A stretch of DNA of 64,000 nucleotides from Haplodiscus bocki (Eukaryota): NCBI GenBank assembly GCA_965655095.1, contig OZ296648.1, forward strand, positions 131,688,001 through 131,752,000. The letters are read 5' to 3'. The notes beneath the pieces were generated by a model, which was given only the letters and a program-made list of their open reading frames with translations, did not search any database and was not told where the DNA came from. The position numbers and the translations under genes are program-made. Below, piece after piece: positions 9,001 to 35,389 of this stretch; the first letter of the stretch is position 1; each line of letters starts with the position of its first letter.

Positions 9001-12000
9001 TACGATTGGGTGACATCTAGCTGCATTTTCTGACCTCTCTGCAACCCGCCAGCTACCTAATAAAGGCTCAAGATATTTTGAATACACTTTACGCCAAAAA
9101 AAATTCCACAGGGCTCGATTGAAAGAGTTTAAAAAAGTTGGGAAAATTTGTGACCTTTTGAGCGTATTCTATCAGCTCCGAATCAACTCCACCTTCTTTT
9201 AGAGGCTCCGAAACGTACTCACGTATCTTATAGCTATAGACAAACGCAAGATTGTGGTCATTGTGACCATTCTAGTTGATTAGATTGATTCGGGACCTCA
9301 GAGATATGAGCACTGGAATGATCCACTTTACGATGTTGATGTCTGACGGCATCTTAACGTCCACTGTGGCCAACAAATCACTTTGTTTGGCCTTATTCAT
9401 CTAATTCGCGGTCCACAGCATGCGATAGGACGCTTACTTGGCGTCCGGGTCATGAAAATGGAAAACACGGCGGCAAAAAGTTGTTCTTTACAACTGAGAC
9501 TATTTGTTTTGACCAAAAATGGTCTGCTTCATTGCTACAACTGGGTAACACCTAAGTTTTTTTGTGGCCTCTACGCAGCCCACCAGCTACCCAACAAAAG
9601 TTCAATAGCTATTTTGGATACACTTTACTCCTGAAAAAATTCCATAGGGCTCGATTGAAAGAGTTCAAAAAAGTTGGAAAATTTGACCTTTTGAGCGTCT
9701 TCTATCAGCTCCACATCAACTCCAGCAAATTTTAGAGGGTCCAAAACGTACCCACGTATTAAGTAGCTAAAGAAAAACGCAAGATTGTGGTCATTGTGAC
9801 CATACTAGTTGATTAGATTAATTCGGTACCTCAGAGATATGAGCACTGCAATGATCCACTTTACGATGTTGAGGTCTCACGGCATCTTAACGTCCACTGT
9901 GGCCAACAAATCAATTTGTTTGGCCTTATTCATCTAACTCGCGGTCAACAGCCTGCGATAGGACGTTTAGTTGGGGTCTGGTTCATGAAAATGGAAAACA
10001 CGCAGGCAAAAAGATGTTTTCTAAAACTGAGACCATATGTTTTGACCAAAACTGGTCTCCTTTATTGCTACGATTGGGTGACATCTAGCTGCATTTTCTG
10101 ACCTCTCTGCATCCCGCCAGCTACCTAATAAAGGCTCAAGATATTTTGAATACACTTTACGCCTAAAAAAAATCCACAGGGCTCGATTGAAAGAGTTTAA
10201 AAAAGTTGGGAAAATTTGTGACCTTTTGAGCGTATTCTATCAGCTCCGAATCAACTCCACCTTCTTTTAGACGACCCAAAACGTACTGAGTTACACTTTA
10301 GCTATGGACAAACGCCATATTGTGGTCAATATAGCCATACTAGATAATTAGATTGATTCGGAACCTCAGAGATATGAGCACTGGAATGGTCCACTTTACG
10401 ATGTTAAGGTCTCCACGATATCTTAACGTCCACTCTGGCCAACAAATCGCTTCCTTTGGCCTTATGCACCTAATTGGTGATCAACAGCGTGCGATAGGAC
10501 GTTTAGTTGGGGTAATCGTCATGAAAATGGAAAACACGGAGGCAAAAAGTTGTTTCTTAAAACTGAGACTATATATTTGGACAAAGATGGTCTCCTTTAT
10601 TGCTACAACTCGGTGACATCTAGCTGCATTTTCTGACCTCTCTGCAACCCGCCAGCTACCTAATAAAGGCTCAAGATATTTTGAATACACTTTACGCCAA
10701 AAAAAATTCCACAGGGCTCGATTGAAAGAGTTTAAAAAAGTTGGGAAAATTTGTGACCTTTTGAGCGTATTCTATCAGCTCCGAATCAACTCCACCTTCT
10801 TTTAGAGGCTCCGAAACGTACTCACGTATCTTATAGCTATAGACAAACGCAAGATTGTGGTCATTGTGACCATTCTAGTTGATTAGATTGATTCGGGACC
10901 TCAGAGATATGAGCACTGGAATGATCCACTTTACGATGTTGATGTCTGACGGCATCTTAACGTCCACTGTGGCCAACAAATCACTTTGTTTGGCCTTATT
11001 CATCTAATTCGCGGTCGACAGCATGCGATAGGACGTTTACTTGGCGTCCGGGTCATGAAAATGGAAAACACGGCGGCAAAAAGTTGTTCTTTACAACTGA
11101 GACTATTTGTTTTGACCAAAAATGGTCTGCTTCATTGCTACAACTGGGTAACACCTAAGTTTTTTTGTGGCCTCTACGCAGCCCACCAGCTACCCAACAA
11201 AAGTTCAATAGCTATTTTGGATACACTTTACTCCTGAAAAAATTCCATAGGGCTCGATTGAAAGAGTTCAAAAAAGTTGGAAAATTTGACCTTTTGAGCG
11301 TCTTCTATCAGCTCCACATCAACTCCAGCAAATTTTAGAGGGTCCAAAACGTACCCACGTATTAAGTAGCTAAAGAAAAACGCAAGATTGTGGTCATTGT
11401 GACCATACTAGTTGATTAGATTAATTCGGTACCTCAGAGATATGAGCACTGCAATGATCCACTTTACGATGTTGAGGTCTCACGGCATCTTAACGTCCAC
11501 TGTGGCCAACAAATCAATTTGTTTGGCCTTATTCATCTAATTCACGGTCAACAGCCTGCGATAGGACGTTTAGTTGGGGTCTGGTTCATGAAAATGGAAA
11601 ACACGCAGGCAAAAAGGTGTTTTCTAAAACTGAGACCATATGTTTTGACCAAAACTGGTCTCCTTTATTGCTACGATTGGGTGACATCTAGCTGCATTTT
11701 CTGACGTCTCTGCAACCCGCCAGCTACCTAATAAAGTCTCAAGATATTTTGAATACACTTTACGCCTAAAAAAATTCCACAGGGCTCGATTGAAAGAGTT
11801 TAAAAAAGTTGGGAAAATTTGTGACCTTTTGAGCGTATTCTATCAGCTCCGAATCAACTCCACCTTCTTTTAGACGACCCAAAACGTACTCAGTTACACT
11901 TTAGCTATGGACAAACGCCATATTGTGGTCAATATAGCCATACTAGATAATTAGATTGATTCGGAACCACAGAGATATGAGCACTGGAATGGTCCACTTT

Positions 12001-13369
12001 ACGATGTTAAGGTCTCCACGATATCTTAACGTCCACTCTGGCCAACAAATCGCTTCCTTTGGCCTTATGCACCTAATTGGTGATCAACAGCGTGCGATAG
12101 GACGTTTAGTTGGGGTAATCGTCATGAAAATGGAAAACACGGAGGCAAAAAGTTGTTTCTTAAAACTGAGACTATATATTTGGACAAAGATGGTCTCCTT
12201 TATTGCTACAACTCGGTGACATCTAGCAGCTTTTTCTGACCTCTACACGACCATTCAGATAGTTCAGAAATGTTCAATAGCTATTTTGGATACACTTTAC
12301 TCCTGAAAAATTTCCATAGGGCTCGATTGAAAGTGTTTGAAAAAGTTGGAAAATTTGTGACCTCTTGAGCGTATTCTATCAGCTCCATATCAACTCCAGC
12401 TTTTTTAGAGGCTCCAAAACGTACCCACGTATTAAGTAGCTAAAGAAAAACGCAAGATTGTGGTCATTGTGACCATACTAGTTGATTAGATTAATTCGGT
12501 ACCTCAGAGATATGAGCACTGCAATGATCCACTTTACGATGTTGAGGTCTCACGGCATCTTAACGTCCACTGTGGCCAACAAATCAATTTGTTTGGCCAT
12601 ATTCATCTAATTCGCGGTCAACAGCTTGCGATAGGACGTTTAGTTGGGGTCTGGTTCATGAAAATGGAAAACACGCAGGCAAAAAGATGTTTTCTAAAAC
12701 TGAGACCATATGTTTTGACCAAAACTGGTCTCCTTTATTGCTACGATTGGGTGACATCTAGCTGCATTTTCTGACCTCTCTGCAACCCGCCAGCTACCTA
12801 ATAAAGGCTCAAGATATTTTGAATACACTTTACGCCTAAAAAATTCCACAGGGCTCGATTGAAAGAGTTTAAAAAAGTTGGGAAAATTTGTGACCTTTTG
12901 AGCGTATTCTATCAGCTCCGAAACGTACTCACGTATCTTATAGCTATAGACAAACGCAAGATTGTGGTCATTGTGACCATTCTAGTTGATTAGATTGATT
13001 CGGGACCTCAGAGATATGAGCACTGGAATGATCCACTTTACGATGTTGAGGTCTCACGGCATCTTAACGTCCACTGTGGCCAACAAATCACTTTGTTTGG
13101 CCTTATTCATCTAATTCGCGGTCGACAGCATGCGATAGGACGTTTAGTTGGGGTCTGGTTCATGAAAATGGAAAACACGCAGGCAAAAAGATGTTTTCTA
13201 AAACTGAGACCATATGTTTTGACCAAAACTGGTCTCCTTTATTGCTACGATTGGGTGACATCTAGCTGCATTTTCTGACCTCTCTGCAACCCGCCAGCTA
13301 CCTAATAAAGGCTCAAGATATTTTGAATACACTTTACGCCAAAAAAAATTCCACAGGGCTCGATTGAAA
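1..13369. repeat. Tandem satellite array, ~534-bp monomer, ~25 copies, with higher-order repeats; continues beyond the left edge
   Basis: Landmarks such as GGGCTCGATTGAAAG and GAGATATGAGCACTG recur every ~533-535 bp. Block 1-~1498 is repeated at offset 4268 (8 monomers). Offsets of ~1068 (6178/7247/8315/9383) and 1603 (9383/10986, 9916/11519, 10353/11956) also recur. Confidence 0.98.
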
Positions 13370-13615
13370 GTGGATGAAGAAGTGGGAAGGGTGGTGGGGG
13401 GTGGGGTGGATGAAGAATCGGGGGAGGAGGTGGTGGATGAAGAATCGGGGGAGGGGGTGCTGGTTGAAGAAGTGGTGGGGGGTGGTGGTTGAAGAAGTGG
13501 TGGTTGCAGAAGTGTGTGTGTGTGGTAAGGGGGTCGAAGAAGTGGGGTGGGGGATTGGTCAAAGAGGTGGGGTGGGGGTGGTCAAAGAAGTGGGGGGTCG
13601 TCAAAAAAAGTGGGG
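13370..13615 (+). repeat. G-rich low-complexity junction (degenerate GAAGAAGTGG/GGTGGGG units), G-quadruplex-prone
   Basis: Abrupt switch from satellite to a tract with many G3-G6 runs and almost no C. Confidence 0.85.
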
Positions 13616-14596
13616 ATTCTGCAAAAATAATGAAAAGAATAATTGCCATAAATAAATTTAGGAAAAATTATGTCAAATATTTATGGGACAAGATGCGGAA
13701 TTATTTCTGACTTCATCCATAATTTTCATTACAGCCGTTCGATAACAAGAATATAATTGTCCTATGGAGTGTTTTGTGTGTAACGGATTGGGGGGGGGGG
13801 GGGATCGATGACTAACATTTGCTGTCTTTTTAAAAATTGCTATTAACCGCTAATACATCTTTGCGCTTAACGCTGAAAAACTCAATACTTTCACCTGTTT
13901 TATTACATTCACCCGCTTATTGAAATTACTTGAAGGCGATAAAGTAAAAGTTTGTTCAAAATTTATTGTTGCTGCTTTAGTAAATACTTTTTCTCATCTG
14001 TATGTATTGTTTTAATTTCCTTATCTGCATCTGATTCATATTTAACTGAAAGTCTGCAGCTGCAGATAATTGCATCAAGAAAATTGAGGAAAGACAAAAA
14101 CAGACAACAACCCACCCAAATGTAAGTTGTGCTCAATTTATAAATTTATCTGTTTTAACCAGAAGTAAAAACAATAATTAAAGCCATTTCTTTTCAAAAC
14201 TAAAAATAATTTTTCTTCTCTAATTTCATAGAGATTTCCCATTCACAACACCAAGAAATAGCAACTTTAAAATTCCCAACAATCACCCCGCGCATTTCGA
14301 GAGCTATTCAAAATTAAAACTACGAAAACAGGCGATTGTTAAATGTGACAGCTCCAAACTCAGGTGAAAGACATGTTCGGGAAGGCAAAGTCTAACTTGG
14401 AGTTTAATTTTGATCATTGTTGACAATCTTTTTCTCTTCGCTATGGTATGACAGCATTTGTCAGAATTATTTTTCGGAAATTCAAAATTATTTCTGCGCG
14501 TGCAACTATATTAATAAATTTGGGAACGTTAACTTTAAGGGCAATTATTTACTGTCACATGTTCCATAATATTAAATTATTTTTGCGGAATCCCCG
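13611..14596. mobile_element. Non-autonomous TIR DNA transposon (MITE, hAT-like), copy A, older and diverged
   Basis: Ends GGGATTCTGCAAAAATAAT (13613) and ATTATTTTTGCGGAATCCC (14594) are inverted repeats. 13613-13730 and 14450-14594 match the reverse complement of the two ends of copy B. No clear TSD. Confidence 0.75.
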
Positions 14597-14990
14597 GAGG
14601 GGAGGGAGTCGAAAAAGTGGGCTGGATTCGAAGAAGGGGTCAAAGGAAGAGGTAGAAAGTTATTTTTAATTTGTTATTTTGATTAAATTTATATATCGAT
14701 TCAAATAATTGTTTTTATCATCATTTTATTTTGATCATTATTTTGATTTAAATATTCTAAGTATTCTCAAGTTGAGAGTTTTTCTGAACTATTTTACATT
14801 TTCAATTTGATTATCTGTATTTGTGTTCAATTTTCGGAGTAATGATTTCGGAGTAATGAATAGCAAGCAATCCATTTAAGATTGGACAAACGAGAACTGC
14901 ATTGACGAAAAACAAGAATTCAAAATGATTTATCATTACTTTTTCTCTTTTCGATTTTTTCGAGCCGGAAATCCATTTTCTTTGATATTC

Positions 14991-15061
14991 ATTGGTTGGG
15001 TTCAAATTTTGGCGCGCGGAATTTTGGCTTTTTATTGGTTGACTTGAAATTTTTTCGCGCC
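14991..15061. promoter_or_regulatory. Candidate cell-cycle-type promoter module (2x CCAAT, 2x CHR-like, 2x E2F-like)
   Basis: ATTGG 14991 and 15034; TTCAAA 15001 and CTTGAA 15043; TTTTGGCGCGC 15007 and TTTTCGCGCC 15052. The triad occurs twice with ~43-bp period. No target gene identified. Confidence 0.35.
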
Positions 15062-15237
15062 AATTTTCGACGCAATGAATGTTCGGCGAGATGGGGATAC
15101 TGATACATAATTGTCATTATGGTATTGCAATTATTGCGAAAATAAATTATTTAACATCACTGTTTCAAAATCCACTGTTTGCGGCAACCCTTTTACTTTC
15201 TTCGGTTAACAAAAAATTAGGAATTAAACTAAAATGA

Positions 15238-15310
15238 CATCCCCGGCGGGATTCGAACCCGCGACCTCTGGATTAGAAGTCCAGCGCGCTATCCACTGCG
15301 CTACGGGGAC
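15238..15310 (-). tRNA. trnR-TCT: tRNA-Arg(TCT), intronless, 73 nt
   Basis: Minus strand reads GTCCCCGTAGCGCAGTGGATAGCGCGCTGGACTTCTAATCCAGAGGTCGCGGGTTCGAATCCCGCCGGGGATG: complete cloverleaf, anticodon loop CTTCTAA, A and B boxes, TTTT Pol III terminator 3 nt downstream. Confidence 0.96.
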
Positions 15311-15999
15311 TTTCAAAACCACGTTTCAATCTTTAACTTAATCAAATCACTAAGTTACATTACTATTTTATCAAACCATTCAGCGCGTGATTTACTGAAC
15401 CACACAAGTATTGAACTATCGGAATACATGCACACTAATAAGAACTGCTGAAAGAACTGAAATACAAAAACAAATCGAAAACGCCAAAATTATGGCACAT
15501 AATCCTTCACATCTCAACGAAACTCATGACCTCAAACTTAAGAAAATGTCCCCCACTAATTACCACGGAAAAGAGCTCATCTACAAGAAATTCATTAATT
15601 CGAAGCAGGGATTCCGCAAAAATAATTTAATATTATGGAACGTCCGACAATAGATAATTAACCCTAAAATCAACGTTCCCTAAATTATTGCAAAACAAGG
15701 CACTTGAAGAAATAATTCCGGAATTTTTGAAAATTATTTCAAACAAATGTTCTTAAACCCATCGGTCTTTCCTAAGAATGGAACAGCATGTCATCGATAA
15801 AGTAAATAGAATTTAGGTTTTACTCGACTGAAATGTCTTACCAAAGATTTTGGTACTTTCAGAATACCCTCCAAAGTACGATTAAGTTCTGTTTATTACA
15901 GCAGGTTGAGTTTGCATTTCTAAAAATTATGGTTGAAAGATGAAAAATAATTCCATATCTTGTTCCATAAAAATTTGCCATGAAATTTTTCCTCCAATA

Positions 16000-16794
16000 T
16001 GTAGCAGTTGAATTTTCTTGCCTAAATTTTACTTTCATAAACTGAACTAAATTTGTAGCTACTGAGTCAAGTACCCTCGAGTGCTGTAAGCCCCTTTATT
16101 AAACTCTCTTGTTTCACTAAATTAATGATTCAAGTACCTTCGAGCACTTCTTATCTATTCTCAAATGTCATGCAAAATTCCTTTCATACGCTCGCTCACC
16201 ATAATACTTAGCCTACAAGTGTGATATAAACCCTTTCGTAACCGTACACTCATTTATATGCAGTTATAATATTTTCCTAGCGTATTTTCCAAATTTAATA
16301 CTATTAGTCAAACCAAAACTGACCTGACCTCCGCCCTCGAAGAAGAACCCTCGACGATCGCGCAAAGAAATTCTGACAAAAATCCCAATCATACGAACCC
16401 AGAACACGAACAAGCAAACAGACGGTCCAACTACAACTCACCTTCAACAGAAGAGAAAGAAAAGTAGCTCAAGAGCCCCTCTTTGCGAAATTTCAACCCA
16501 AAAGACAAAGACACTTCCCTGAACAAGAACTCTCATTATAATGTAAGTTTATACAAAAACCCTCTGTAATTTAAAACCTTTAACTTTCTTTCTTTTCTTT
16601 TCTAATTTAAATTCTTTCTAAAAAGCCAAAAACAATTTTTGTATTCACTTGAGATATCCCGCTAGCAACCACCAAACCAAAAACACCTAAATAGTAATTT
16701 TAGAAATTACTGAAGTACCATTTCCAATAACAGTCGTCCTCCGCATCCAAAATCATTTTCTAGCGAACTGTTTTAAAAGCATACGACTGTTACA
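16000..16794 (+). repeat. 5' LTR (795 bp)
   Basis: Matches 27823-28627 except for one substitution and a 10-bp indel (compared by eye); TATAAA at 16225 and Inr-like TCATTT at 16250. Confidence 0.97.
16541..16548 (+). promoter_or_regulatory. Major splice donor AT|GTAAGT, supplying the AT of the env and ORF4 start codons
   Basis: Consensus GTAAGT at 16543; joining to AG|G at 23976/23977 or 26736/26737 creates an in-frame ATG in both cases. Confidence 0.8.
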
Positions 16795-16797
16795 AAA

Positions 16798-16815
16798 TGG
16801 TGACAGGAGTGGGAT
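16798..16815 (+). other. Primer binding site, tRNA-Leu
   Basis: TGGTGACAGGAGTGGGAT lies 3 nt after the LTR; 17/18 match to the complement of the metazoan tRNA-Leu(CAG) 3' end as recalled (TGGTGTCAGGAGTGGGAT). Confidence 0.85.
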
Positions 16816-17910
16816 ACCTCAAGTGAAAGGTCGTTTAAAAACGATCCGCGTGCGATTTTCGAAAATTGGAAAAGTGATTTAGTTTTTCCCCTTTCTTAGC
16901 TTTGGCCCAAGACCTTCGCCCACTGTTTTTCTTGTCACTGAATTTCAGTGCCCGCCAGCTAAGATCCTCTTCACCGGACTGTGTCCGAGCCTAGTTTTCC
17001 TAAGATCCTCTTCACCGGACTTTGTCCGAGCCTAGTTTCCCCAGCTTCGTGCTGTGTATTCCGCGTTATGCGAGTTCTGGCAAGACCCACTAAGATGGCC
17101 CTTAAGTTTTAAGGATCTCACGTGAGTACTAGCTAAAACTTCAATTTTTCTTGAAATTTTTCGTACATTTTTGCTTTTGTAGCCCCTTTTCCTTTAATGT
17201 CCGTTCAGTTTTGTGCACATACGTCACCCCATGCCCGAGTTTTTTCTGTGAGTCCACCTTCACCCCCACCAGCGTACCGACCCGTGCAAAACCGTTTCCC
17301 AATCATCAGTACAACCTGCCTTTTCAACATTTTTCTCGCACTGACTGTCATTACGCTACTCCTACTGATAGCCGCCATAACCAGATTAGCTTTCGAAGTT
17401 CACGAAACCAGAAAACAGTGTTCCCGTGCAGTAAACGCTAAATTTTCAACAAAACAAATTTTTGAGTAGAGTTTGCAATTCCGATGTATCTTTTTGGTTT
17501 TCCTGTGTCAACCACCACGAACACGTTACCTAAAGAAATTTTTATTCCCTGTTATTTCTGTCAAGTCCGTACACATCAAATCCCAATCGCTTTTCGGCCC
17601 GAGTCCTCTTTTACACCGCATCAATTGAGTATTCACTATCGACTTGAAGGAATTCATTACCAACACAGTGAGACGCACCCACTAATTCAATTTTTCCCTA
17701 ACACGAACCATCCCAACCACATTAAGTCCACAAGTAGTTTCTTCTTCCCAATCCTAACTCAAATCTGGAGAATTTATATTGAATTCTTGTCGCACTACTT
17801 TACTGACCCCCTTGCGATCGTGTACCCAGGTAGTGGTCCCTCTCAACTTGATGACCTCAGCCGCTAATAATTCGAAGTAGTTTGATTTTCTTTGAGTTTT
17901 TTTAATCACT

Positions 17911-19129
17911 ATGTCGACAACCGTCGCTACGGCAACGACCACCACCGCCACCATTACAAGTGCAGGAGGAACCACTTCTAGCACGCCTACCTCCTCCACT
18001 GCTACCACCAGTGCAACAAGTACCCCAGTTTCGTCGACCGCAACTAGCTCAACGCCTACTGCAACCCTAGGCACTGGTGCTGCCGCACCTGGCACGCCGT
18101 TCGCGACACCTTTTGGCCCCGGAGGTGCCCCTTCTGTAACTCCTTTGCCCTCATGCCTTATGCCAGAAAGTTTCACCGGATCTGGTGATTTTGAGGACTA
18201 CCTACAGCAATTTAATACTGCTGCCTTACTTTCTGGTTGGTTTTCACTAACCCAAGACAACAGGCGACATTATTTCGCCCTTCGGCTGCGAGGAAATGCC
18301 CTGCACTTCTACACAACGCTTTCTGCAGCCCAACAAACTGATTTCAATTTGTTAGTTGATGCCTTCCGGCAGAACTATACAACGAATGTCGACATACTGA
18401 AAGCAAGATTGAAAGCTGCCCGACAGCAACCCAATCAAGATATTTCTGCCTTTTTGTGTGACATTAGAACACTCGCGCGACGCGCCTATCGCGCTTTTCC
18501 TCACTTAGTAGAACAAATTGTCCTGACTAGTTTCATCGAAGGCCTGAGCGATGCAACGCTTCGATGGGAACTTAGAAAGTCCAAACCAGCTACAGCTGAT
18601 GATGCTCTAGCCCTGGCCATGGAATTGAATTCTTTCCTGGAAATTGAGAAAGGAGCCCCATCAACAAGCAAAATGGCCGAGACCAGCGTAAACGCGATCT
18701 CCCGTGAAACTCCTGAGCCACCCACCAAAGAGTGGATGGACGAGCTTGTTCGAACGCTAACGGACGGAATCAAGAACTCCATGCCTAAGCCGAGCCAAGA
18801 AGGATCCCGACAGCGTAATAGCACGCCAAATCGCCACCAACCTTCTCGGTCAAACAGTACCGACTCACAAGGAACCCGAACGGTCCGTTTTCAAAATATT
18901 TCGAACGAAAGAAGAAATAAGTGGCCGAGACAATAATTGGCGCGGACCCAACCGGCAAAATACGAAGTCTAACCGATCGAATGACAACAGAAACAGCTCC
19001 AAAGGACCTTGCAAACATTGTAAACGCGAAAATCATGCCTCAAACGAATGCAAAGCGTGTTTCAAGTGTGGAAAGATTGGACACTTCCGCAATGAGTGTC
19101 GAAGTAACACTCCCAACAATTTAAACTAA
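17911..19129 (+). CDS. gag: Gag (Thr-rich N-terminus, capsid, two CCHC zinc knuckles); frameshifted near 18900-18935 in this copy
   Basis: ORF 17911-18936 has a retrotransposon capsid-like region (PESFTGSGDFEDYLQQF...RQQPNQDISAF). The zinc knuckles CKHCKRENHASNEC and CFKCGKIGHFRNEC (from 19010) are in the +1 frame, which ends at TAA 19127-19129. Confidence 0.9.
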
Positions 19130-19171
19130 GAAAGTCTACGCCAGAGGGTCAACGCGCAGACAAAGACACTC
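19120..19171 (+). promoter_or_regulatory. -1 programmed ribosomal frameshift signal (U UUA AAC plus putative pseudoknot)
   Basis: T TTA AAC immediately precedes the gag stop, in the correct phase to enter the protease frame. After a 7-nt spacer: stem GTCTACGC/GCGCAGAC and loop-tail pairing GAGGGTC/GACACTC. Confidence 0.8.
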
Positions 19172-19935
19172 CCCCAGGCCCACAAATTGAAACATTGAAT
19201 TCTGTTGTTGATCACCGAAGTGAGTTCATTCAAATAACAATTTTTGATCGCATAATCGAAGCGATATGCGACAGTGGAGCAAGTGTGTCATGCCTTAGTA
19301 GTGAAATCTATGATTCCCTCAGATTGAAACATTCTTTGAAATTGCAACCTGCCCTGAGACAACTGAAAGCTGCAAATCAATTGCCCATTGAGACTCGAGG
19401 CGTTGTACGCCTCCCAATAAGTTTAGGCGGAAGAAAATTTGAACATAATTTTCATGTTTTGGCTAAGTCGGAGGCCGATTGCCTTATAGGACTCGATTTT
19501 TTGGAAGATCACCAATGTGATCCACTTTTTTCGCAGAAGAAATTGCGAGTGAATGATGACACTTTTGTCCCATTAAATCACAAAGTTTATACCATACAAA
19601 CTGATCAAGTCTTCCGAGTTGCTTCCACTGACAACGTTTGGATCCCAGCAGGTCATTCGATGATCATACCAGCCCATATCCCAGGATGGAAGCGCCCACC
19701 AATAGAGTTGGCCGCCGTATTCGAGCCGCATGAACGGTTCAAGGTAGACAAAGAGGTCAGTGCTGACCATGTCTTGTTTAATTTCTCCGAGGAAACAATC
19801 CCGGTGATGGTAACAAACACTGGGGATGAAGCGATCATGATACATAAAGACACCACATTGGGACAATCTGAACTAGTCGCAACGGATAAAATTCAAAACA
19901 TTAGTACATTGAAAAGCCGCAAAAGCCAAAACTAA
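19120..19935 (+). CDS. pro: Aspartic protease plus degenerate dUTPase-like segment (N-terminal part of pol)
   Basis: AICDSGASVSCL catalytic motif and CLIGLDFL; frame is open from the slippery site; separated from RT by an apparent 1-nt frameshift at ~19920-19935. Confidence 0.9.
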   Translation, partial: FKLRKSTPEGQRADKDTPPGPQIETLNSVVDHRSEFIQITIFDRIIEAICDSGASVSCLSSEIYDSLRLKHSLKLQPALRQLKAANQLPIETRGVVRLPISLGGRKFEHNFHVLAKSEADCLIGLDFLEDHQCDPLFSQKKLRVNDDTFVPLNHKVYTIQTDQVFRVASTDNVWIPAGHSMIIPAHIPGWKRPPIELAAVFEPHERFKVDKEVSADHVLFNFSEETIPVMVTNTGDEAIMIHKDTTLGQSELVATDKIQNISTLKSRKSQN

Positions 19936-19961
19936 AGGACAAAAAGGATGCCAAGTACGAT

Positions 19962-22900
19962 TTGAAACTTGTCAAAAACTCTATCGATACTGGTATTTCT
20001 CAGAAAGCAAAAGCAAAGTTCTATAAACTAATCAATGAGTTTTCTGATGTGATCTCAAAAAATGAATGGGATATTGGCCAATGCGATGTAGCCGCCCACA
20101 AGATTCAAGTAGAACCCGGATCGCGACCAATTAAACTCCCCAACAGAAGAATGCCCTTACATTACAAGGACGATCTACAGGAAAAGATCGATGCTTTCCT
20201 AGAAAAGAAGTTAATCACGCCTTGTCATAGCCCATATAGTGCACCGGCCATGCTCGTCCCGAAGAAAAACGGCAAACTGCGTTTAGTAATAGACTACCGG
20301 CAGTTGAATAAACAAACAATCAAGTCCTGTTGGCCCATTCCATCCATAGAAGAAATCTTTGACACCTTAGAAGGAAGTGAATTCTTTACCACGATTGATA
20401 TGTCGTGGGGTTTCTACCAGCTCCCAATGGCTGAAGAAAGTCAACACTTTACCGCTTTTAGCACGCCTTTCGGATCTTTCAAATGGCTCCGAATGCCTAT
20501 GGGACTGACCGGTAGCCCGAATACTTTTCAAAGCTTGATGGAACAGGTTCTAGTTGGCCTAACTTGGAAGACAACAGTCCCTTATTTCGATGATTGTATC
20601 ATCTTCTCTTCTATGGCTGAAGAACACATTGAAAGATTAAGAGAAGTTCTTGAACGGTTTCGCCTTGCGAATCTAAAAATAAACCCAACAAAATGTGAAT
20701 TTTTCCGGACTCGCGTCCCCTTTCTTGGCCATATCATCAGCAAGAATGGTCTAGAGGCGGACCCGGACAAAATTGCTGCCGTTAAAAAGTTTCCCATCCC
20801 TACAAATCCGACCGAAGTAAAATCTTTTCTTGGTTTATGTTCTTACTACCGTCGTTATGTGCAAAATTTTGCTGAAATAGCCCGACCACTCCACAAAGAA
20901 AGTGAAGCAACTACAAATTTAAAGTGGACACCCGAAGCCCAAGATGCTTTTGAAACTCTGAAATCTCGATTAACGACTACGCCCATTTTGGCTTTTCCTA
21001 TCATGAAAGAACCTTTCATCCTGTACACCGACGCTAGCCTAACGGCTATGGGCGCTGTCTTGTCGCAAGTACAAGATGGACAGGAGCGTGCCATCTGCTA
21101 CGCCTCAAAAGCTTTCTCGAAAGCCCAAACTAGATATTCTGCGACTAAAAGAGAATTGTTAGCCGTCGTTAACTTCACACGACACTTCAAACATTACTTG
21201 CTTGGTCATAAATTCACAATTATCACTGATCATCGCGCCCTACAATGGCTCCACAACTTCAAGGACCCAGATGCACTAACCGCCCGCTGGCTTGAAAAAC
21301 TTGCCGCTTTCAACTACGAGGTAGTGCATAGGCCCGGAAAATCGATTGGCCATGCCGATGGTCTATCCCGAACACCACTTAGAGCATTTAATGCAATTGC
21401 AACTGAAGACCCAGCTGCAGATGCGCCTGAAGAAGACCAAGAATGGCCCAACCGCACGAATGAAAGTCCACCTGACCCCAAACATTTCCAATATTCGGAG
21501 ATCCAAGGCGATGTACTGCAATCAACTGACTCCATTGCTCACTGTATTTCAGCTGACTTCAAGCTAGGAGCAGGAATCGCTCGAAGCATTAAGCGACGCT
21601 TTCCAACGCAGTACCCCGACAAAGAAGCCATCGCTAGCGAAGTCATTTGGCCGCAATGGATCCCCGAATCGCAAAGTTTCGTCTATCATTTAATAACAAA
21701 AGTGCGTTATTTCCATAAACCAACGTACAAGGCATTGAGATTATCTCTAGAGGCAATGAAAAACCACGCTGAAAGCAAAAAAGTTTTGCGTATTAGCATG
21801 CCCCAGATAGGTTGTGGCCTCGATAAACTTGATTGGAATAAAGTTCGAACATTGATTAAAGAAGTTTTCCGACCTACCAACATAGAGATCATCGTGTTTC
21901 TAAAGCCCTTAAAAGAACCGCCACGCGCAAGTCAAAACCCAGTTAACTCCTCTGATAATGCAGTTGCAGCAGAAACGCCTAATATTTCCGAAACGTTGAC
22001 TTCCCTCGCATCGGCACAGAGAGCCGACCCACAATTGAAGAATCTTTTTCAATGGGTCATACGTGGTACACCACCAAGTACCCACGAGTTACAAGGACTG
22101 CCGCGAGCAACATGGCAATTGGTCAACGAATTCCGCAGTCTGAAGATCATCAATGACGTTCTATGTAGAGAATTCATCCACAAAGAACGCCCATTGTACT
22201 ATCATCAACTGATCCCTGCGTCATTAGTACCCCAAGTCCTGAACTCAATCCACTCATCGACCACTGGAGGTCACCTAGGAATAATCAAAACTGTAGAAAA
22301 AGTACGTGAACGTTTCTACTGGCCTGGCTTCCAGGAGGATGTGAAATTATTCATCAATCGTTGTGAACAATGTCAGAAAAGAGCCAACCCACCCAAGACC
22401 CATCGACATTCTTTGGTCGAATGGACCCCAAGCTATCCGTTTCATCATATCGGCATTGATTTTATGAGTCCCTTACCATTGTCGAACGGTAACCAACACA
22501 TTCTTTTGATTGGCGATCAATTTTCGAAGTGGTACGAAGCGATTCCACTTCCCGACCAAACTGCTTCTACCACAGCTACGGCTCTTCTTGAAAATTGGAT
22601 CTGTAGATTTGGATGCCCCCACAGTATCCATAGCGATCAAGGTCGTAACTTCGAATCAGAACTTTTCAAAAGTCTGAATCAAGCCTTGCAAGTTGACAAG
22701 ACCCGAACAACAGCCTTCCGGCCCCAGTCGAACGCGGTTGTGGAACGGATGAACCGTACGTTGCAATCAATGCTTGCCAAATGCGTCAACGATGAACAAA
22801 GTAACTGGTCACAACAGTTATCGTATGTCATGATGGCATATCGTACCTCGGTTCACGAATCCACAGGGTACACTCCACACCTTCTTGTCTATGGACAGGA

Positions 22901-24035
22901 AGTCTGCCTTCCTATTGATTTCATGTATCCAAATCCGAGTGATCAACCCCCAGCCGACCTCCATGAATTTGTGTCAGCCCGACAAGTCAGATTTCAAAAG
23001 GCGTACGATTCGGCTCGTACAGCCCTGAATTTCAATCAGCGACGCAGAAACGCCCTTTACAATCGAAAGGTCCATGGACCCACCTATCAAGTCAATCAAA
23101 AGGTTCTACTACACAATCCCGTTGTCCCAGTTGGAAAGTCACCAAAGTTCTTTAGCCCATGGAAAGGTCCATATGTCATTTTACAATGCCTCAATGATGT
23201 GACCCACCGCATTCAAGAAATTGCAAATCAAAAAGAACTTGTTGTTCATTATGACCGACTGAAGTTATTCCATGAACCCCCACCGACCTCGAATGTACCA
23301 ACGCGTGATAAAAGAAATCCGAAAAACATATCTCAACCAAAACCTCAGCAACAAGAACCATCAATCCCCGAGTACGACCACGATCAATGCACCTGGCATT
23401 ATCCGTACCATACCGTCCCTTCAGCAACCACTTGTTCTCGTGGCGTTGCTTGCACAACCCCGCCTGCTACGCCTGCACCAGCAACTACTCCAGTTGGTTC
23501 CCCCAAACCTGTACTACCGAGTCCCTCTTCTTCCTATTCTGGAGCTACAGCACCCTATAGTCATGGCTCTCCCAGCACACCGAAGACAACCACTTCTCTC
23601 CGTTCAGGCACACCTACACCTGAACCTCAAACATCTGCAGAATCACCAGCTCACTCCCGAAGCCTTCCTAGCAGCCCTTCTACGCCGTCTTCTGTGAGAT
23701 CAAAACCATGGTTCCGCGAAGTCATTGACAATGCTTCTCGTACTCTTCAATTTGGTGATGCACCAACTCACGCCCAACCTCAACATAACCTCCGCAGTAG
23801 TACAAAAGAACAACGCAAAGCCCAACCATTATGGAAAGCAAAACTACCTCCTGACCTAAGTGATTTCACTTCCCCCGCCAGCTCGAAGAAGAAAAGAAAA
23901 GTTCGCCCACTTCATAACTTTCACTCCTTTCAGAACGCTAATTTCACACCTTTTACTCCTCATATCGTTCTTTTAGGCTTCCTTTCCTACTTTCACTCGT
24001 CCTTCTCAATGGCCCGCCTCTTTGTTACACTGTGA
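19962..24035 (+). CDS. pol: Pol: reverse transcriptase, RNase H, macrodomain, integrase (HHCC, DDE, GPY/F), Ser/Pro/Thr-rich tail
   Basis: RT LRLVIDYRQLN, MPMGL, YFDD (20583); RH LYTDAS, RELLAV, TDHRAL, HADGLSR; IN H..GHLG..CEQC, GIDF, HSDQGRNF, VERMN, WKGPY. Confidence 0.97.
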   Translation: MKLVKNSIDTGISQKAKAKFYKLINEFSDVISKNEWDIGQCDVAAHKIQVEPGSRPIKLPNRRMPLHYKDDLQEKIDAFLEKKLITPCHSPYSAPAMLVPKKNGKLRLVIDYRQLNKQTIKSCWPIPSIEEIFDTLEGSEFFTTIDMSWGFYQLPMAEESQHFTAFSTPFGSFKWLRMPMGLTGSPNTFQSLMEQVLVGLTWKTTVPYFDDCIIFSSMAEEHIERLREVLERFRLANLKINPTKCEFFRTRVPFLGHIISKNGLEADPDKIAAVKKFPIPTNPTEVKSFLGLCSYYRRYVQNFAEIARPLHKESEATTNLKWTPEAQDAFETLKSRLTTTPILAFPIMKEPFILYTDASLTAMGAVLSQVQDGQERAICYASKAFSKAQTRYSATKRELLAVVNFTRHFKHYLLGHKFTIITDHRALQWLHNFKDPDALTARWLEKLAAFNYEVVHRPGKSIGHADGLSRTPLRAFNAIATEDPAADAPEEDQEWPNRTNESPPDPKHFQYSEIQGDVLQSTDSIAHCISADFKLGAGIARSIKRRFPTQYPDKEAIASEVIWPQWIPESQSFVYHLITKVRYFHKPTYKALRLSLEAMKNHAESKKVLRISMPQIGCGLDKLDWNKVRTLIKEVFRPTNIEIIVFLKPLKEPPRASQNPVNSSDNAVAAETPNISETLTSLASAQRADPQLKNLFQWVIRGTPPSTHELQGLPRATWQLVNEFRSLKIINDVLCREFIHKERPLYYHQLIPASLVPQVLNSIHSSTTGGHLGIIKTVEKVRERFYWPGFQEDVKLFINRCEQCQKRANPPKTHRHSLVEWTPSYPFHHIGIDFMSPLPLSNGNQHILLIGDQFSKWYEAIPLPDQTASTTATALLENWICRFGCPHSIHSDQGRNFESELFKSLNQALQVDKTRTTAFRPQSNAVVERMNRTLQSMLAKCVNDEQSNWSQQLSYVMMAYRTSVHESTGYTPHLLVYGQEVCLPIDFMYPNPSDQPPADLHEFVSARQVRFQKAYDSARTALNFNQRRRNALYNRKVHGPTYQVNQKVLLHNPVVPVGKSPKFFSPWKGPYVILQCLNDVTHRIQEIANQKELVVHYDRLKLFHEPPPTSNVPTRDKRNPKNISQPKPQQQEPSIPEYDHDQCTWHYPYHTVPSATTCSRGVACTTPPATPAPATTPVGSPKPVLPSPSSSYSGATAPYSHGSPSTPKTTTSLRSGTPTPEPQTSAESPAHSRSLPSSPSTPSSVRSKPWFREVIDNASRTLQFGDAPTHAQPQHNLRSSTKEQRKAQPLWKAKLPPDLSDFTSPASSKKKRKVRPLHNFHSFQNANFTPFTPHIVLLGFLSYFHSSFSMARLFVTL
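21486..21905 (+). other. TARG1/OARD1 (Poa1p-like) macrodomain embedded in Pol
   Basis: GDVLQSTDSIAHCISADFKLGAGIA ... YHLITK ... HKPTYKALRLSLEAMK ... ISMPQIGCGLDKLDW closely follows the OARD1/TARG1 signature, including the catalytic Lys (LITK) and Asp (GCGLD). Confidence 0.92.
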
Positions 24036-26302
24036 CCCACTACTCGACTCATCTCAACGATCAGCCAGAAGTTCCAGTCTTCAAGAAAGGCGCTGCCTTC
24101 CTCTTCAAATACCAAGCAGTCACTTCCGAAAGTGAGAGCAAAGTTCGAGTGTTCTCCCCGTTCCCGAAAATCCCGGATGTCAATCTTACTGGAGCTGAAG
24201 AATTGTTGAGCCTAGCGAAAATACGAATAACCGGAATTGGTGGCATGTATGTCCAAAAAGTTTGTGAATTCCAAGAAATCAACAAAACATATGGCCTATT
24301 AATGACACAGTTGAAGGATCGCGTCGAATTGATCAAGCTTGAAGTGAAACAAGCAACAGATGAGCAAGGAAAGCTCGCAGACGTAATGAAGTCTTTTCTC
24401 CCGAAACAGTATCAGAGGAACGTGGCGACGCTTCCACGTTCGAAACGATTTATTGGCGCAGTAGCTGCTCTTGCAGCAGGTGCCGGATTGATCCTGGGAG
24501 ACCCGTTGAAAGAAGCTGCATGTACAGCCGTCTCGATTTTTAACTTGTGCGATGACACAAGCAGTTTGTCCCAAGACATGGACCAGATCCTGAAAACGCA
24601 GGAAGAAATAATAGCGACCTTGCAACGTGTCCAGTCAGCCAATGATCAAAACTTCTTCCTACTGGGTAATGAAGTCCGAGAAACGCAACAAAATGTTAAG
24701 AACCTTCGTGATGCTGTGAATGATCACCTACAGGTTCTCCATGATCGAATAAATGGAATTCAAGGAGATTTAATTCAACATAAAGAATGTCAACGAAGAC
24801 AAGCTCAACATTCCCTCTTCCTCCAAGAGATTAGATATACCATATCTCATTTGGGTACCTTGTATACTCACATAAAGTCTTACCAAGCTGCGTTCTACGC
24901 CTACAAGATTAACTTGTTCTCGACGATCTCGTCCCTTGCTAGTGGCCAAATAACCCCCCAGTTGCTCCTACCCCCAGAAATCGCTGACATTGTACGAACA
25001 CTGTCAGAAGAAGAGAGTTATCGTGGTACAAAACTTACCCCCGCCATACAGCCTGGCTTCGAAGCTGTCTATTATGAGATTCAACTCGTTTTAGAAGTCA
25101 CGTTAATTCCGCGCGGTATATCAGTTGTACTTGGTGTACCAATGAACTCCAAGTCTTCCACTTTCAACGTGTACCATGCTACCCCGCTGTACCAACCAAA
25201 CGGTGACAACAAGACAGCCTCCTTGTTCCAGCTCGCAAAGCCTTTCTTGGCTGTGGCTACTGACGACTCTCGATACGCCGAATTGGATAGTTCCACCTTA
25301 CAACAATGTTCAGGTAACAATCGGATCAGACTTTGTCGCAAAGGTTTCTCAACCACAACTGATGACACCCTCCTATGCCTGAGTTCTTTGATGTTCGATT
25401 ATGCCATCCCAGCATTGCGTAACTGCCTCGCCAATTCTGTGCTTTTACCTGACGCGCCACAAGCTTTTTATTTGGCCGAAGGATTGTATCATGTCATCTC
25501 CCGTGAACCACTTCTTCACATGAAAAACGCCAGTGATATACATGGTGTCAGTGTTTCAATGATCCCATGTCAAGCCTGCATTTTGAGACCCAGTTGCCAC
25601 AGTACCCTAACCCTGAACCAAGGCGATCTAGTTCTTGAACCGGATATGGACTACTGCTCGACGAGCACAGAGCCCTTCTTTGCCACGATCGAACTGATCC
25701 CATCATTAGAACAAGTCTTCAAACATGTCCCACACTCCAATCATGTCTTTCATGCCTATTCGTTGGGCGAAGCACGTCATTCTGTCCTCAGCAGCGTTCG
25801 TATGGAATTAGCAGAACTCCCGGACGTGCGACGCATGTCAGTTGATTCAATCGACCAACTAGCACACCCGATTGCGCAGTATTACTCATCAATTTCTCCG
25901 GCAACATCACAAGCCCTCGAGTCATATCTCCCCTTTCGCACTGCCGTCTTGTTCTCGACTGTTTCGATTACCCTTTCTTCATTGACTTTCACTATCAGTT
26001 TTACCTTGTTCCGCCGTCAATGGAAACGACTTTTTCTTCATCCACACAAGTTCTTCAAAAGTACAAATGGACGACTCTTGCATGTCACGGACAGTCATGA
26101 AATTCCAGATACAGCCATTGATGACGCTTCTGTTTTCATCCAGCTCAGTTTGGACGAATTCAACGCATTAAAAACACTTGCCAGTGAAACCCTGAGACAC
26201 CCACCCCATAATAACTCATATACCACATGCAATGCCCCTCATATTCCTACCCGTGTCTACCCAGACATCACAGCCCCTCATTATTCCGAGTCTACAACAT
26301 AA
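23977..26302 (+). CDS. env: Env, class I F-type fusion glycoprotein (~775 aa when spliced to the LTR leader)
   Basis: Spliced N-terminus MLPFLLSLVLLNGPPLCYT (signal peptide); furin site RSKR (24437-24448) followed by fusion peptide FIGAVAALAAGAGLILG; heptad repeats; Cys-rich region; N-glycosylation sequons; TM helix 25943-26011 then RRQWKR. Confidence 0.92.
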
Positions 26303-26736
26303 TCTAACTGAACTCCTTAACATCTTGTTGTTGTAACATATCATACATGTCATATTTAAAATCAAAACAATTTGCACTTCTGTACCCCTTTTGTACGTCT
26401 CCGTACTTATCTTGCCTAGATTCACATCATGGCCCAGCTTTTGCACATTTCCGTGCCTGCTCTCTTGTACGTTCCCGTACCTGCCCAGCTTCTGTTGGCC
26501 CGTTTGCACGTGTCCGTGCCCACTTCTTGCTCAGACTTTGATCTGACCCTTGACAAATTGAGACCAATCATGTCTCCCCTGTCCTATGATTTCAGCGTTG
26601 ACAGTATACGTATCCGTATACACGTACCTCAAAAAAACTCAACATTAAAGACTCGTTTCTGTTTTTCTCCCTTCCCCACCCTCTTTTTCTTTAATCCATA
26701 AATTGTGAAATGTTCTTATCATTTTTTTTGTTTCAG

Positions 26737-27733
26737 GTTTCCTACTAAGCGTCCATCTGGCACCCCTCTCTACACCAGCAGTGGAAATGTGTCCATCATC
26801 TCCCCAGGCGACGTTGTCCAGATATTGGATGAACGAGAATATCGAGTACTACGGATCAACCCCCATTCGTCAACGGTGGTCCTACGTCGAGTCGATGCCA
26901 GTACCAATCAACGTAGCTTCATGCGCCCCTCAACTTCCATTTGTACCCTACCAGCCACTACCCGTGATATCGCCGTCGAAGTTAACGAGCCAACTGAAAA
27001 TTGCCTCTGTGAAATCCCGCCCCCTCCCGTCTTGCCAGATGTTGCCGACATTTCAATTAGTTGCAATCTTGACGTTGATGAGTATGTTAACAGTACACAC
27101 CCGGAATTCGACTCTGTTGCTAAGTTGCAACAAGGATTCGAAGAAGCTAAATTGGCCGCTAATGCAGCTTTCAAGGAACTTTGCACCGAGGTCCTGAAAG
27201 TGACAGAACTAAAAGAAAAGATAAATTCCCTGCAGCAACGCATAACAACACTCACAGAGGAGAACGAAGGTCTTTTAAAACGAACAATGGATCTAACAGA
27301 GGACGTGTCTGCCCTATCGGCCATTGCAACAAATAAACGCTACGTACCCGTAATGCAGAGGATCATTTGGCACCATGTGCTTCAACAGCCCCTTTTGCAA
27401 CTCCCCTTAACAATTGGTTTCAATTATGCACCCCCTAACTTCCTCTTCAACCTTCTAGGGTGCCCCCAGTCGTCGACACCCGAACTGATTAGCGAGAACG
27501 TAAAATGCTTATTACAGATTCTCCATCCCGACAAGAACCCACAGGCTCCCCCTACAGTCACCCAGTATATACCTTTGATATCTTTTGCAAAAACTATTTT
27601 GCTGGACAAAAGCCTTTCCCCCGTATACCGCTGCTGTGGTCTGGATGGTATTGCCCGCCGTCAACACAAACTTCGCACTTGTCGCCGTTGTGATCCCTTC
27701 TTGCAAACCCTCAATGACCTAATGGATCTATAG
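26737..27733 (+). CDS. ORF4 accessory protein (~332 aa when spliced): coiled coil, DnaJ-like J-domain, Cys-rich tail
   Basis: Intact ~1-kb ORF between env and the PPT; acceptor TTTTTTTGTTTCAG|G; NFLFNLLGCPQSSTPELISENVKCLLQILHPDKNP...ISFAKTILLDKSLSPVYRCCG fits the J-domain pattern (HPD at 27524-27532). Confidence 0.85.
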
Positions 27734-27809
27734 ATATTCTTTTATAATAATTTTATACATTGTAATAATTATTGTTCGCCTTTTTTTATTTGCGGGACGC
27801 AAACCCAAT

Positions 27810-27822
27810 AAAAGGAGAGTGG
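27810..27822 (+). other. Polypurine tract
   Basis: AAAAGGAGAGTGG immediately 5' of the 3' LTR. Confidence 0.9.
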
Positions 27823-28627
27823 TGTAGCAGTTGAATTTTCTTGCCTAAATTTTACTTTCATAAACTGAACTAAATTTGTAGCTACTGAGTCAAGTACCCT
27901 CGAGTACCCTCGAGTGCTGTAAGCCCCTTTATTAAACTCTCTTGTTTCACTAAATTAATGATTCAAGTACCTTCGAGCACTTCTTATCTATTCTCAAATG
28001 TCATGCAAAATTCCTTTCATACGCTCGCTCACCATAATACTTAGCCTACAAGTGTGATATAAACCCTTTCGTAACCGTACACTCATTTATATGCAGTTAA
28101 AATATTTTCCTAGCGTATTTTCCAAATTTAATACTATTAGTCAAACCAAAACTGACCTGACCTCCGCCCTCGAAGAAGAACCCTCGACGATCGCGCAAAG
28201 AAATTCTGACAAAAATCCCAATCATACGAACCCAGAACACGAACAAGCAAACAGACGGTCCAACTACAACTCACCTTCAACAGAAGAGAAAGAAAAGTAG
28301 CTCAAGAGCCCCTCTTTGCGAAATTTCAACCCAAAAGACAAAGACACTTCCCTGAACAAGAACTCTCATTATAATGTAAGTTTATACAAAAACCCTCTGT
28401 AATTTAAAACCTTTAACTTTCTTTCTTTTCTTTTCTAATTTAAATTCTTTCTAAAAAGCCAAAAACAATTTTTGTATTCACTTGAGATATCCCGCTAGCA
28501 ACCACCAAACCAAAAACACCTAAATAGTAATTTTAGAAATTACTGAAGTACCATTTCCAATAACAGTCGTCCTCCGCATCCAAAATCATTTTCTAGCGAA
28601 CTGTTTTAAAAGCATACGACTGTTACA
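27823..28627 (+). repeat. 3' LTR (805 bp)
   Basis: Direct repeat of 16000-16794 with an extra GTACCCTCGA. Confidence 0.97.
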
Positions 28628-29410
28628 AATAAATAATTTTTGGAGAAAATGGGCAAAATTAAATTATTTATGGCAATTATTTATTTTGCAATTATTCTTG
28701 CAGAATCCCTGACTCGAAGGCAACAAGTGGTCTCGAAAATCGGCAATGTGAAGCAAATTATTCTTCCGCTCTAACAAATTTAAACAGCAAAATTTAAAAG
28801 AAACGAAAAAGATCCGTCCTCCAACTCAATGGACTCCAAATTTTGAATCGAACCATCTTCCCAACGGCAAATGAAGTGGGGAAACACAGCCCCTCCATGT
28901 ACCTCGACAAATTTACTCAGCGATTTCGAGGCCTCCCAATTTTGTGCAGAAATGAAAACATAGAAACGATAAAGATGCCTGCCGGCTAAATAGTTTCCAC
29001 TGTTAATCGCCTTTTTGCCAACACTGAAAAGGGATTAGTACACAAGTGAATTCCCATCGCGTCGAATATTCGAAGCATCGAAAATTACAGACTGTTCAAA
29101 GCGTCAAAAATTCCTGAGCAGCCAGTGGTCTTTAGTCGATTTTTGACGGTATGAATAGTCACCGTGGATGGCAGGACAAAATACCCAAGCCCAAAATACC
29201 CGAAGGCCCAAAAAAACCCAAGATTGAAATAGCCATACTAATTAAATAAATAACAGCGTCGTGAACTAAAAAATTTATAACGCCTCTAATTACTTTAGTT
29301 TATGGATGTTTTGAAATATTTGTGCAGACAAAATAAAATACCACAAGTCAAAATATTCACAGAAAAACAACTGCGAAGTTCAAAAAGTTGGGTATACACG
29401 TGGAGTACCC

Positions 29411-34836: not shown

Positions 34837-35389
34837 GTCGAAGTACTCAAAACAATACAGAACCTGAAAAGAAAGCTGAGTCAAAAGCGGAAAAAATGGA
34901 ATATGTGGAATCAGATGAAGTTTTTCAAGAAATGGCGGTAAAGCTTTGAAGGAAATCGACTAGAAAATGATTAAAATCGATTTCAAGAAAGAAACAAGTA
35001 GATGAAGCTCAAACAAAATCTATTAAATAAGTCCATCACCTTGCTTATATGAAAATAGGCCCCTGGCGAAGCTCGAATATCGAAGCCTATGAACCAATAA
35101 AATAAACCAATTTTTGAGGTTAGCGAAAAAGAAAAGGCTACCAAAAGTGTCATAGTCAGACAAGTGCTACGTTTTTGAACAGAGACACCAGATTAGCTAT
35201 TTCCACCGACATTGAAATCTTCAAGATCCCAGTTCTGCAGAAAGTTGGCAACATGTTATAAACAAGCCAGCCTATTGGCGTGATTTTTCCGTTTTTTTTT
35301 CGAGGGGCTTGTAATGACAGATTTGGTGCTTCGAACATCAACTTCGTTCAAAACTGTTATATATGGTTATAAAGTTTTCTGGCTCAAGC

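Follow-up and report, generated by a model that had tools for sequence, protein, structure and literature searches.

Can a Ty3/gypsy retrotransposon be organised like a complex retrovirus, with an envelope gene and a further gene that would both be read from spliced RNAs? The question is raised by a provirus at positions 16000-28627 of a 64,000-nucleotide stretch of the Haplodiscus bocki genome (assembly GCA_965655095.1, contig OZ296648.1, positions 131,688,001 to 131,752,000 of the forward strand), referred to here as the window. Its modules follow one another as long terminal repeat (LTR), tRNA-Leu primer site, gag, pol, env, a fourth open reading frame (ORF4), polypurine tract and LTR. The four genes stand in the order stated by the original prediction, as seen in the sequence and in Pfam matches to capsid, zinc knuckle, protease, reverse transcriptase (RT), RNase H, integrase, a weak Macro and DnaJ. 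By the features tested, the element is an env-carrying, errantivirus-like Ty3/gypsy element with a complex-retrovirus layout. We consider it likely that it represents a recently inserted, frameshifted copy of a lineage organised in this way. Coordinates below are window positions unless another locus is named, and all parts of the element lie on the + strand.

The layout is most evident from the way in which env and ORF4 would be expressed. The 1.5-Gb genome was searched, 12 element copies were read at length, and the splice signals were compared among the ten best-matching other copies (sister copies) and in two more distant families, L041 and L042. Neither gene has a start codon of its own: the first in-frame methionine is residue 90 of Env, past the signal segment, and residue 62 of ORF4, past the start of its conserved barrel. 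Protein conservation of both begins at a splice acceptor. The env acceptor (23953..23977), a pyrimidine tract followed by AG|G with 23977 as first exon base, is kept in 10/10 sister copies, and the ORF4 acceptor (26713..26737), a T tract followed by CAG|G with 26737 as first exon base, in 30/30 aligned rows. A predicted shared donor, AT|GTAAGT, lies within the LTR (16541..16548, exon/intron break after 16542) and recurs in 37 of the 38 LTR rows aligned; the present copy and overlapping loci are included in all these row counts, and at the donor one LTR type did not align. Unspliced, the donor reads start-stop. Both acceptors are in phase 2, so that joining the AT of the donor to the G of either acceptor would give an ATG for either gene. 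The donor motif occurred in 2.2% of 5000 LTR shuffles, and L041 and L042 likewise have acceptors of this phase, together with an AT|GT donor inside their own LTRs. That one LTR donor and two acceptors would make both start codons is well supported by these signals, and the spliced env and ORF4 RNAs foreseen by the original prediction gain support from a donor and acceptors conserved in three families. Among the joints listed for contigs of four sequencing runs none fell at the predicted splice sites, which has no bearing on expression. A start codon of this kind has a precedent (sources cited here by PMC number were available in part, and what is said of them holds for those parts). In Drosophila gypsy, of the Errantivirus type, the env start codon also consists of a donor AT and an acceptor G; its donor is situated in the gag region and is used for env only (PMC2585583), whereas the present element has its donor in the LTR, for what would be two genes.

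Does this layout characterise a lineage or a single insertion? Most co-occurrence counts rest on match coordinates. ORF4 had 125 genome matches (118 of 1,889 candidates scored). Nine of the ten sister copies carry gag, protease, RT, macrodomain, integrase, env and ORF4 in order, and the tenth, internally deleted, retains env and ORF4. The LTR pairs of the ten are 97.9-99.9% alike, at least eight have their own 4-bp duplication, and the nearest shows 97.4% identity over 7.85 kb. Further away, L041 (84% identity in RT, 67% in env, 53% in ORF4) and L042 (75%, 56% and 29%) keep macrodomain, env and ORF4 in the same order, and ORF4 of the L042 type has 112 further genome matches. Co-occurrence of the modules between LTR pairs was a test named beforehand, and ORF4 is kept in the sisters and in both distant families; its presence across sister copies refutes a one-off capture. 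We conclude that the layout is inherited. That a host gene was captured only once or recently, or that the arrangement is an assembly artefact, is in our judgement next to impossible: no single piece of the four sequencing runs spans the element, but the 125 and 112 ORF4 matches include independent insertions that have LTR pairs and target duplications of their own, synonymous divergence is saturated between families, and no cellular protein of ORF4 architecture is among the sequence, ESM Atlas and profile-search matches listed.

The L042 branch has gone one gene further. A fifth ORF of 205 residues with its own ATG lies between ORF4 and the 3′ LTR in L042 (positions 8172-8786 of L042, a locus on C7), and 150 genome matches to it were scored, at 59-100% identity and many of them without stops. 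Searches of Pfam, PDB and the ESM Atlas returned nothing for it. An assignment to GDSL/SGNH, made by eye, was unsupported by Pfam or PDB.

Is the element nonetheless a true retrovirus? It has the marks of Ty3/gypsy elements, namely TG...CA LTRs, a primer site, a polypurine tract, a short target duplication and the Pol order protease-RT-RNase H-integrase, as in Ty3/gypsy (Metaviridae). The fusogen encoded by its third ORF is F-type and includes a furin site, a fusion peptide and a membrane anchor; a fusogen so equipped, of the F or gB type, marks errantiviruses in the broad sense. Lokiretroviruses also bear a Mononegavirales-like fusion protein (PMC9040795) and fish epsilon-like endogenous retroviruses (ERVs) can carry macrodomain ORFs (PMC4977317), which would suit a relative of lokiretroviruses or Odin-type retroviruses in place of a Ty3/gypsy element. 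Comparison with solved structures makes such kinship very improbable: the RT/RNase H matches Ty3 RT best (expectation value, E, 3e-80), the next match reaches 1e-54, and retroviruses stand at 5e-36 or weaker, foamy virus RT at 5e-36. By these matches the RT is closer to Ty3/gypsy than to retroviruses or to caulimoviruses. Moreover, the dual RNase H of lokiretroviruses is absent, the Pfam scan giving one RNase H, of Ty3 type, and no other.

An RT tree places the element in a 27-row clade with a long stem and a Shimodaira-Hasegawa-like approximate likelihood ratio test (SH-aLRT) support of 100. The tree has 106 rows, 16 of 122 having been dropped as short or without an RT match; the rows are unnamed and come from a search with the macrodomain region. 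In 25 of the 27 clade rows RNase H and integrase have a macrodomain between them; the remaining two are partial proteins, and a four-row sister group is without it.

The env gene (23977..26302) encodes an F-type class I fusion protein with an N-terminal hydrophobic signal, a furin site at 24437, a fusion peptide and a C-terminal membrane anchor. Its structural model (mean predicted local distance difference test, pLDDT, 76) gave 202 Foldseek matches at E<=0.001, headed by henipavirus, metapneumovirus and respiratory syncytial virus F (pneumovirus F) with low template-modelling scores; this F-protein fold agrees with the Env that had been claimed for the element. A furin site followed by a hydrophobic fusion peptide is present in all three families, and the hydropathy of their C-terminal anchors is modest (1.6, 1.8 and 2.2). 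The ratio of nonsynonymous to synonymous substitution (dN/dS) of env against L042 is 0.12, indicating purifying selection. Matches to haemagglutinin HA2, at E 0.006 or weaker, were taken as coiled-coil noise.

What does the gene behind env encode? ORF4 (26737..27733) reads as a KOW/SH3-like barrel (residues 9-72), a Cys/Pro linker, a coiled coil (127-216), a predicted J-domain (232-305) with the His-Pro-Asp (HPD) motif at 27524, and a Cys-rich tail. In the model (mean pLDDT 73, predicted template-modelling score 0.35) a barrel of five strands is followed by a disordered linker, then by a helix of 90 residues and finally by a helical C-terminal domain, which has the J-domain hallmark of a helical hairpin with HPD between helices II and III. 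J-domains top both fold searches (Foldseek best E 4e-3; VIA Z 8.4), and the barrel is likest Spt5 KOW domains, with a middling Z of 7.7. Pfam DnaJ matches the present ORF4 at E 1.3e-5 and 25.6 bits, about 2 bits under the cut-off of 27.8; L041, P0026 and P0027 pass the cut-off, and P0029 and L042 miss it as the present copy does. The J-domain claimed by the original prediction is upheld by its HPD, its fold and its relatives over the cut-off, but not by the Pfam score of the present copy.

That score, together with the missing Pfam match in the most distant family and a helix II that by inspection is poor in basic residues, would also fit a real conserved gene whose J-domain is a relic that does not engage Hsp70, ORF4 then being a coiled-coil scaffold. 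We consider this unlikely. HPD is exact in 81 of the 101 homologues spanning the loop (132 examined, decayed copies included), and H, P, D and K belong to the best-conserved positions of ORF4 (93-96 of ~103) while the flanks drift to 29% identity. The ORF4 family profile, in addition, matches DNAJC5 at E 1.5e-8.

Substitution patterns indicate that ORF4 is under purifying selection. The proportions of nonsynonymous and synonymous differences (pN and pS) are 0.34 and 0.84 to L041, and dN/dS is 0.03-0.48 in 37 of 38 half-gene comparisons with 19 related copies and ~0.1 between subfamilies. The two halves of the gene have been exchanged between subfamilies on a near-constant backbone. Eight copies (L013-L020) are mosaic, with an N-half 72-76% identical (dS >2) and a J half 95-99% identical, and the ORF4 next to env loci of >=92% identity stands at 91%+ in 12 cases, 76-89% in 17 and 56-72% in 3. 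As ORF4 has no signal peptide, it is unlikely to chaperone Env in the endoplasmic reticulum. The ESM Atlas returned unnamed clusters only (0.77-0.80), a metagenome scan with ORF4 gave none that was confirmed, and a profile search gave 141 matches, of which the best 120 are all unnamed ENA proteins.

The other unusual module is a TARG1/OARD1-type macrodomain inside Pol, between RNase H and integrase (21465..21899). Its match to human OARD1/TARG1 has an E of 4e-31, against 3e-4 at best for other macrodomains. Alignment equates the lysine codon at 21699 and the aspartate codon at 21822 with TARG1 K84 and D125, the catalytic pair of that enzyme (PMC9967889), which strips ADP-ribose from acidic residues and DNA (PMC11102865). 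Of 46 Pol relatives with a match, 44 span both positions, and 43 of these keep equivalents of both residues; between families pN is 0.29-0.33 against a pS of 0.72-0.89. The domain shares its fold class and catalytic Lys/Asp with human TARG1/OARD1 and bacterial DarG, enzymes that both act on ADP-ribosylated acidic residues and DNA, and differs from them in being fused into a retroelement Pol. The original prediction had seen here a host-manipulation module familiar from true viruses. The macrodomain is indeed present with both catalytic residues, but it is a domain of Pol and belongs to the TARG1/DarG class, found also on other gypsy Pols; the macrodomains of RNA viruses are presumably of another class. 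As part of Pol, the macrodomain of the element would be packaged along with RT and integrase, a location that would suit a role on complementary DNA (cDNA) or at the integration site.

TARG1-type macrodomains occur on other gypsy Pol proteins at three positions (P0224, P0226, P0228-P0235 and P0242): before RT, in the RNase H/integrase interval, and after integrase. In a gypsy Pol of Athalia rosae the macrodomain lies between RNase H and integrase. P0238 shows the order integrase - chromodomain - macrodomain - weak rhabdovirus glycoprotein match (E 0.002). The macrodomain-bearing Pol proteins are scattered over the RT tree, which suggests repeated capture or relocation.

How much of this organisation is already known? 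Env-bearing Ty3/gypsy elements with an F-type env have been described across animal phyla as 'ancient errantiviruses' (Chary and Hayashi, eLife 2026; PMC13524379). The enveloped part of the element is thus not new. The present element resembles them in gag-pol-env order, F-type env, furin site, fusion peptide, tRNA primer site and multiple young copies, and differs from them by a macrodomain between RNase H and integrase and by a fourth gene after env. The domain names 'macro' and 'DnaJ' are absent from the available text and seven supplements of that study, whose bridge-region categories are without a macrodomain; because only the three standard ORFs are annotated there, a fourth gene could have gone unreported (PMC13524379). 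The fish epsilon-like ERVs are alike in having a macrodomain on an enveloped reverse-transcribing element, but they are true retroviruses, carry it as an additional ORF, and are described in the available text, which cites Basta et al. 2009 for the finding, without mention of a J-domain (PMC4977317). LTR elements of bdelloid rotifers carry extra ORFs of the ORF3 type (env, GDSL, DEDDy; PMC5408684), and the CERV of Caenorhabditis elegans Cer1 is an element-encoded export factor (PMC10309623). Both share with the present element extra 3′ ORFs from spliced RNA, and the available rotifer text contains neither macrodomain nor DnaJ.

Across the titles, abstracts and passages of the literature searched, no J-domain gene in an LTR element was described, and neither one donor for two 3′ genes nor this set of modules was found; Repbase, Dfam and GyDB were outside that search. 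Within this scope the statement that no described LTR element has the combination holds. The further suggestion of a new lineage of enveloped endogenous viruses fares less evenly, since env on gypsy elements has precedent (PMC13524379) but the module set was not met in the literature. The enveloped gypsy frame, the splice-made start codon and macrodomains on retroelements are already known.

In complex retroviruses (foamy bel, human T-cell leukaemia virus pX) a regulatory gene lies between env and the 3′ LTR and is expressed from spliced RNA, and the polyomavirus T antigen is a viral J-domain protein that recruits Hsp70. Both are analogies only. Conserved signals suggest that unspliced RNA of the element would yield Gag and, by -1 frameshift, Gag-Pol, and that the LTR donor, joined to one or the other acceptor, would make a start codon each time and so give Env or ORF4. 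From homology, Env would be a furin-cleaved class I fusogen with which particles may pass between cells, and the Pol macrodomain a TARG1-type hydrolase that would travel with RT and integrase and may remove ADP-ribose from cDNA or from proteins at the integration site. The most speculative step concerns ORF4, which would be a cytosolic or nuclear adaptor and not a particle enzyme: its barrel might bind a target, its coiled coil dimerise and its J-domain recruit host Hsp70. The transcript of the element, or the transcription/export machinery, is the foremost of the possible targets, in the manner of Tat, Rev or CERV, though short of probable; a host silencing or defence complex seems doubtful, and capsid assembly or uncoating unlikely.

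The full proposal is that a Ty3/gypsy lineage independently evolved the logic of complex retroviruses. It would have one start-making LTR donor and, by alternative splicing, two 3′ genes, of which the second would encode a regulator that recruits Hsp70 and that exchanged its target-binding half between subfamilies; a TARG1 hydrolase in Pol would strip host ADP-ribose from the cDNA or integration complex, and a sister branch would have added the fifth gene. We advance it tentatively, as falling somewhat short of probable. The element could instead be an ordinary ancient errantivirus with passenger domains, its macrodomain and ORF4 serving its own cycle (cDNA clean-up, particle assembly) with no host manipulation or extracellular spread, an account that is plausible yet on the whole open to doubt. 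TARG1-type macrodomains on unrelated gypsy Pols of unknown env status, at three positions, would suit passenger domains, as would the frequent acquisition of extra ORFs by LTR elements (PMC5408684) and the dN/dS of ~0.1 for ORF4 between subfamilies. Passenger domains leave unexplained the layout of one donor and two acceptors and the swapping of ORF4 halves on a near-constant backbone, and the purifying selection on env (dN/dS 0.12) speaks against them.

Several observations tell against the complex-retrovirus organisation that we favour. The env of L041 and of L042 has an in-frame ATG near its start, so that a splice-made env start may be dispensable in these families. The ten sister copies were chosen by their ORF4 match; for this reason the reverse test was run from env, where 53 of 58 loci (60 env matches minus two second pieces) have a listed ORF4 match <=2.5 kb downstream, and 5 of the 58, by match coordinates, have no listed ORF4 neighbour. 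The ORF4 model had no Foldseek match at E < 0.001, the barrel assignment, at Z 7.7, is a lead only, and the most distant ORF4, that of L042, has HPD but no Pfam DnaJ match. Lastly, ORF4 is without an excess of amino-acid change, such as counter-defence genes often show.

How intact is the copy in the window? The 5′ LTR (795 nt, TG...CA, 16000..16794) and the 3′ LTR (805 nt, 27823..28627) are flanked by a 4-bp target-site duplication, AATA (15996..15999 and 28628..28631), and enclose a primer-binding site for tRNA-Leu(CAG) (16798..16815) and a polypurine tract (27810..27822). The LTRs are one substitution and one 10-nt indel apart, and this near-identity dates the insertion as recent. Host tRNA-Leu(CAG) genes are complementary to the primer site (ARAGORN calls; 2/2 checked). 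A pattern matching the primer tRNA-Leu has >1,100 matches genome-wide, two of them confirmed tRNA-Leu(CAG), and occurs in tandem arrays at C1 161.09-161.14 Mb and C11 13.12-13.22 Mb. The leader contains a 41-nt tandem duplication (16959-17040). Just 5′ of the polypurine tract lies a motif GCG(G/A)GACGC (27790-27800; L041:8050-8060; L042 ~8950) that is common to all three families despite their dissimilar LTRs.

The coding part is damaged. The gag gene (17911..19129), with a Retrotrans_gag capsid region and a CCHC zinc knuckle, is frameshifted near 18.9 kb. In pol, the protease part (19108..19935) is out of frame with RT near 19.9 kb, and the part with RT, RNase H, macrodomain, integrase and a low-complexity tail (19905..24035) is frameshifted near 23.9 kb and runs into env. 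The sisters differ from the present copy in frame at all three places (9/9, 8/9 and 10/10, respectively), and past a conserved motif the pol frame continues for 68 residues here against 26-30 in the eight other copies in which the motif was found. The description of a complete, very young provirus therefore holds for LTRs, target-site duplication, primer site and polypurine tract but not for the coding sequence, which has three frameshifts relative to sister copies. These lesions either arose after insertion or were inherited from a defective template copied in trans. The gag/pol offset, on the other hand, is common to the sisters and coincides with a slippery heptamer in the gag/pol overlap (19120..19126), present in 8/9 sister copies, from which we infer a programmed -1 ribosomal frameshift. 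A stimulatory hairpin 3′ of the slippery site was looked for and was unsupported (z +0.9).

Upstream of the provirus, the window holds a satellite of ~25 units of 533 bp (1-13500) and 82-nt inverted repeats 1 kb apart (14513-15689), between which a tRNA-Arg(TCT) is called (15238-15310), 300 nt before the insertion. Downstream lie two long, uninterrupted host ORFs matching Las1 and SAGA-Tad1 (33628-34959 and 37924-39033, both on the - strand) and a non-LTR element ORF with PHD finger, endonuclease and RT (50582-53791, -). A 591-residue open frame (62227-63999, -) is without a Pfam match; a motif like that of family-B DNA polymerases was noticed in it by eye, and we take the frame to be perhaps a Polinton/Maverick piece.

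Accessory genes on spliced RNAs are seen as typical of complex vertebrate retroviruses. Env and a conserved J-domain gene behind one start-building donor in a gypsy lineage would be a separate route to the complex-retrovirus design, and one that offers small proteins open to experiment. If the full proposal is true, the element would be the first LTR element known with a J-domain co-chaperone of its own, and it would direct attention to ADP-ribosylation as a means by which retroelements are restricted. With its catalytic residues complete, and with further occurrences on scattered gypsy Pols of other animals, the TARG1-type domain may allow a test of a question of long standing, namely whether LTR retroelements are restricted by ADP-ribosylation that the host applies to their cDNA or integration complexes.

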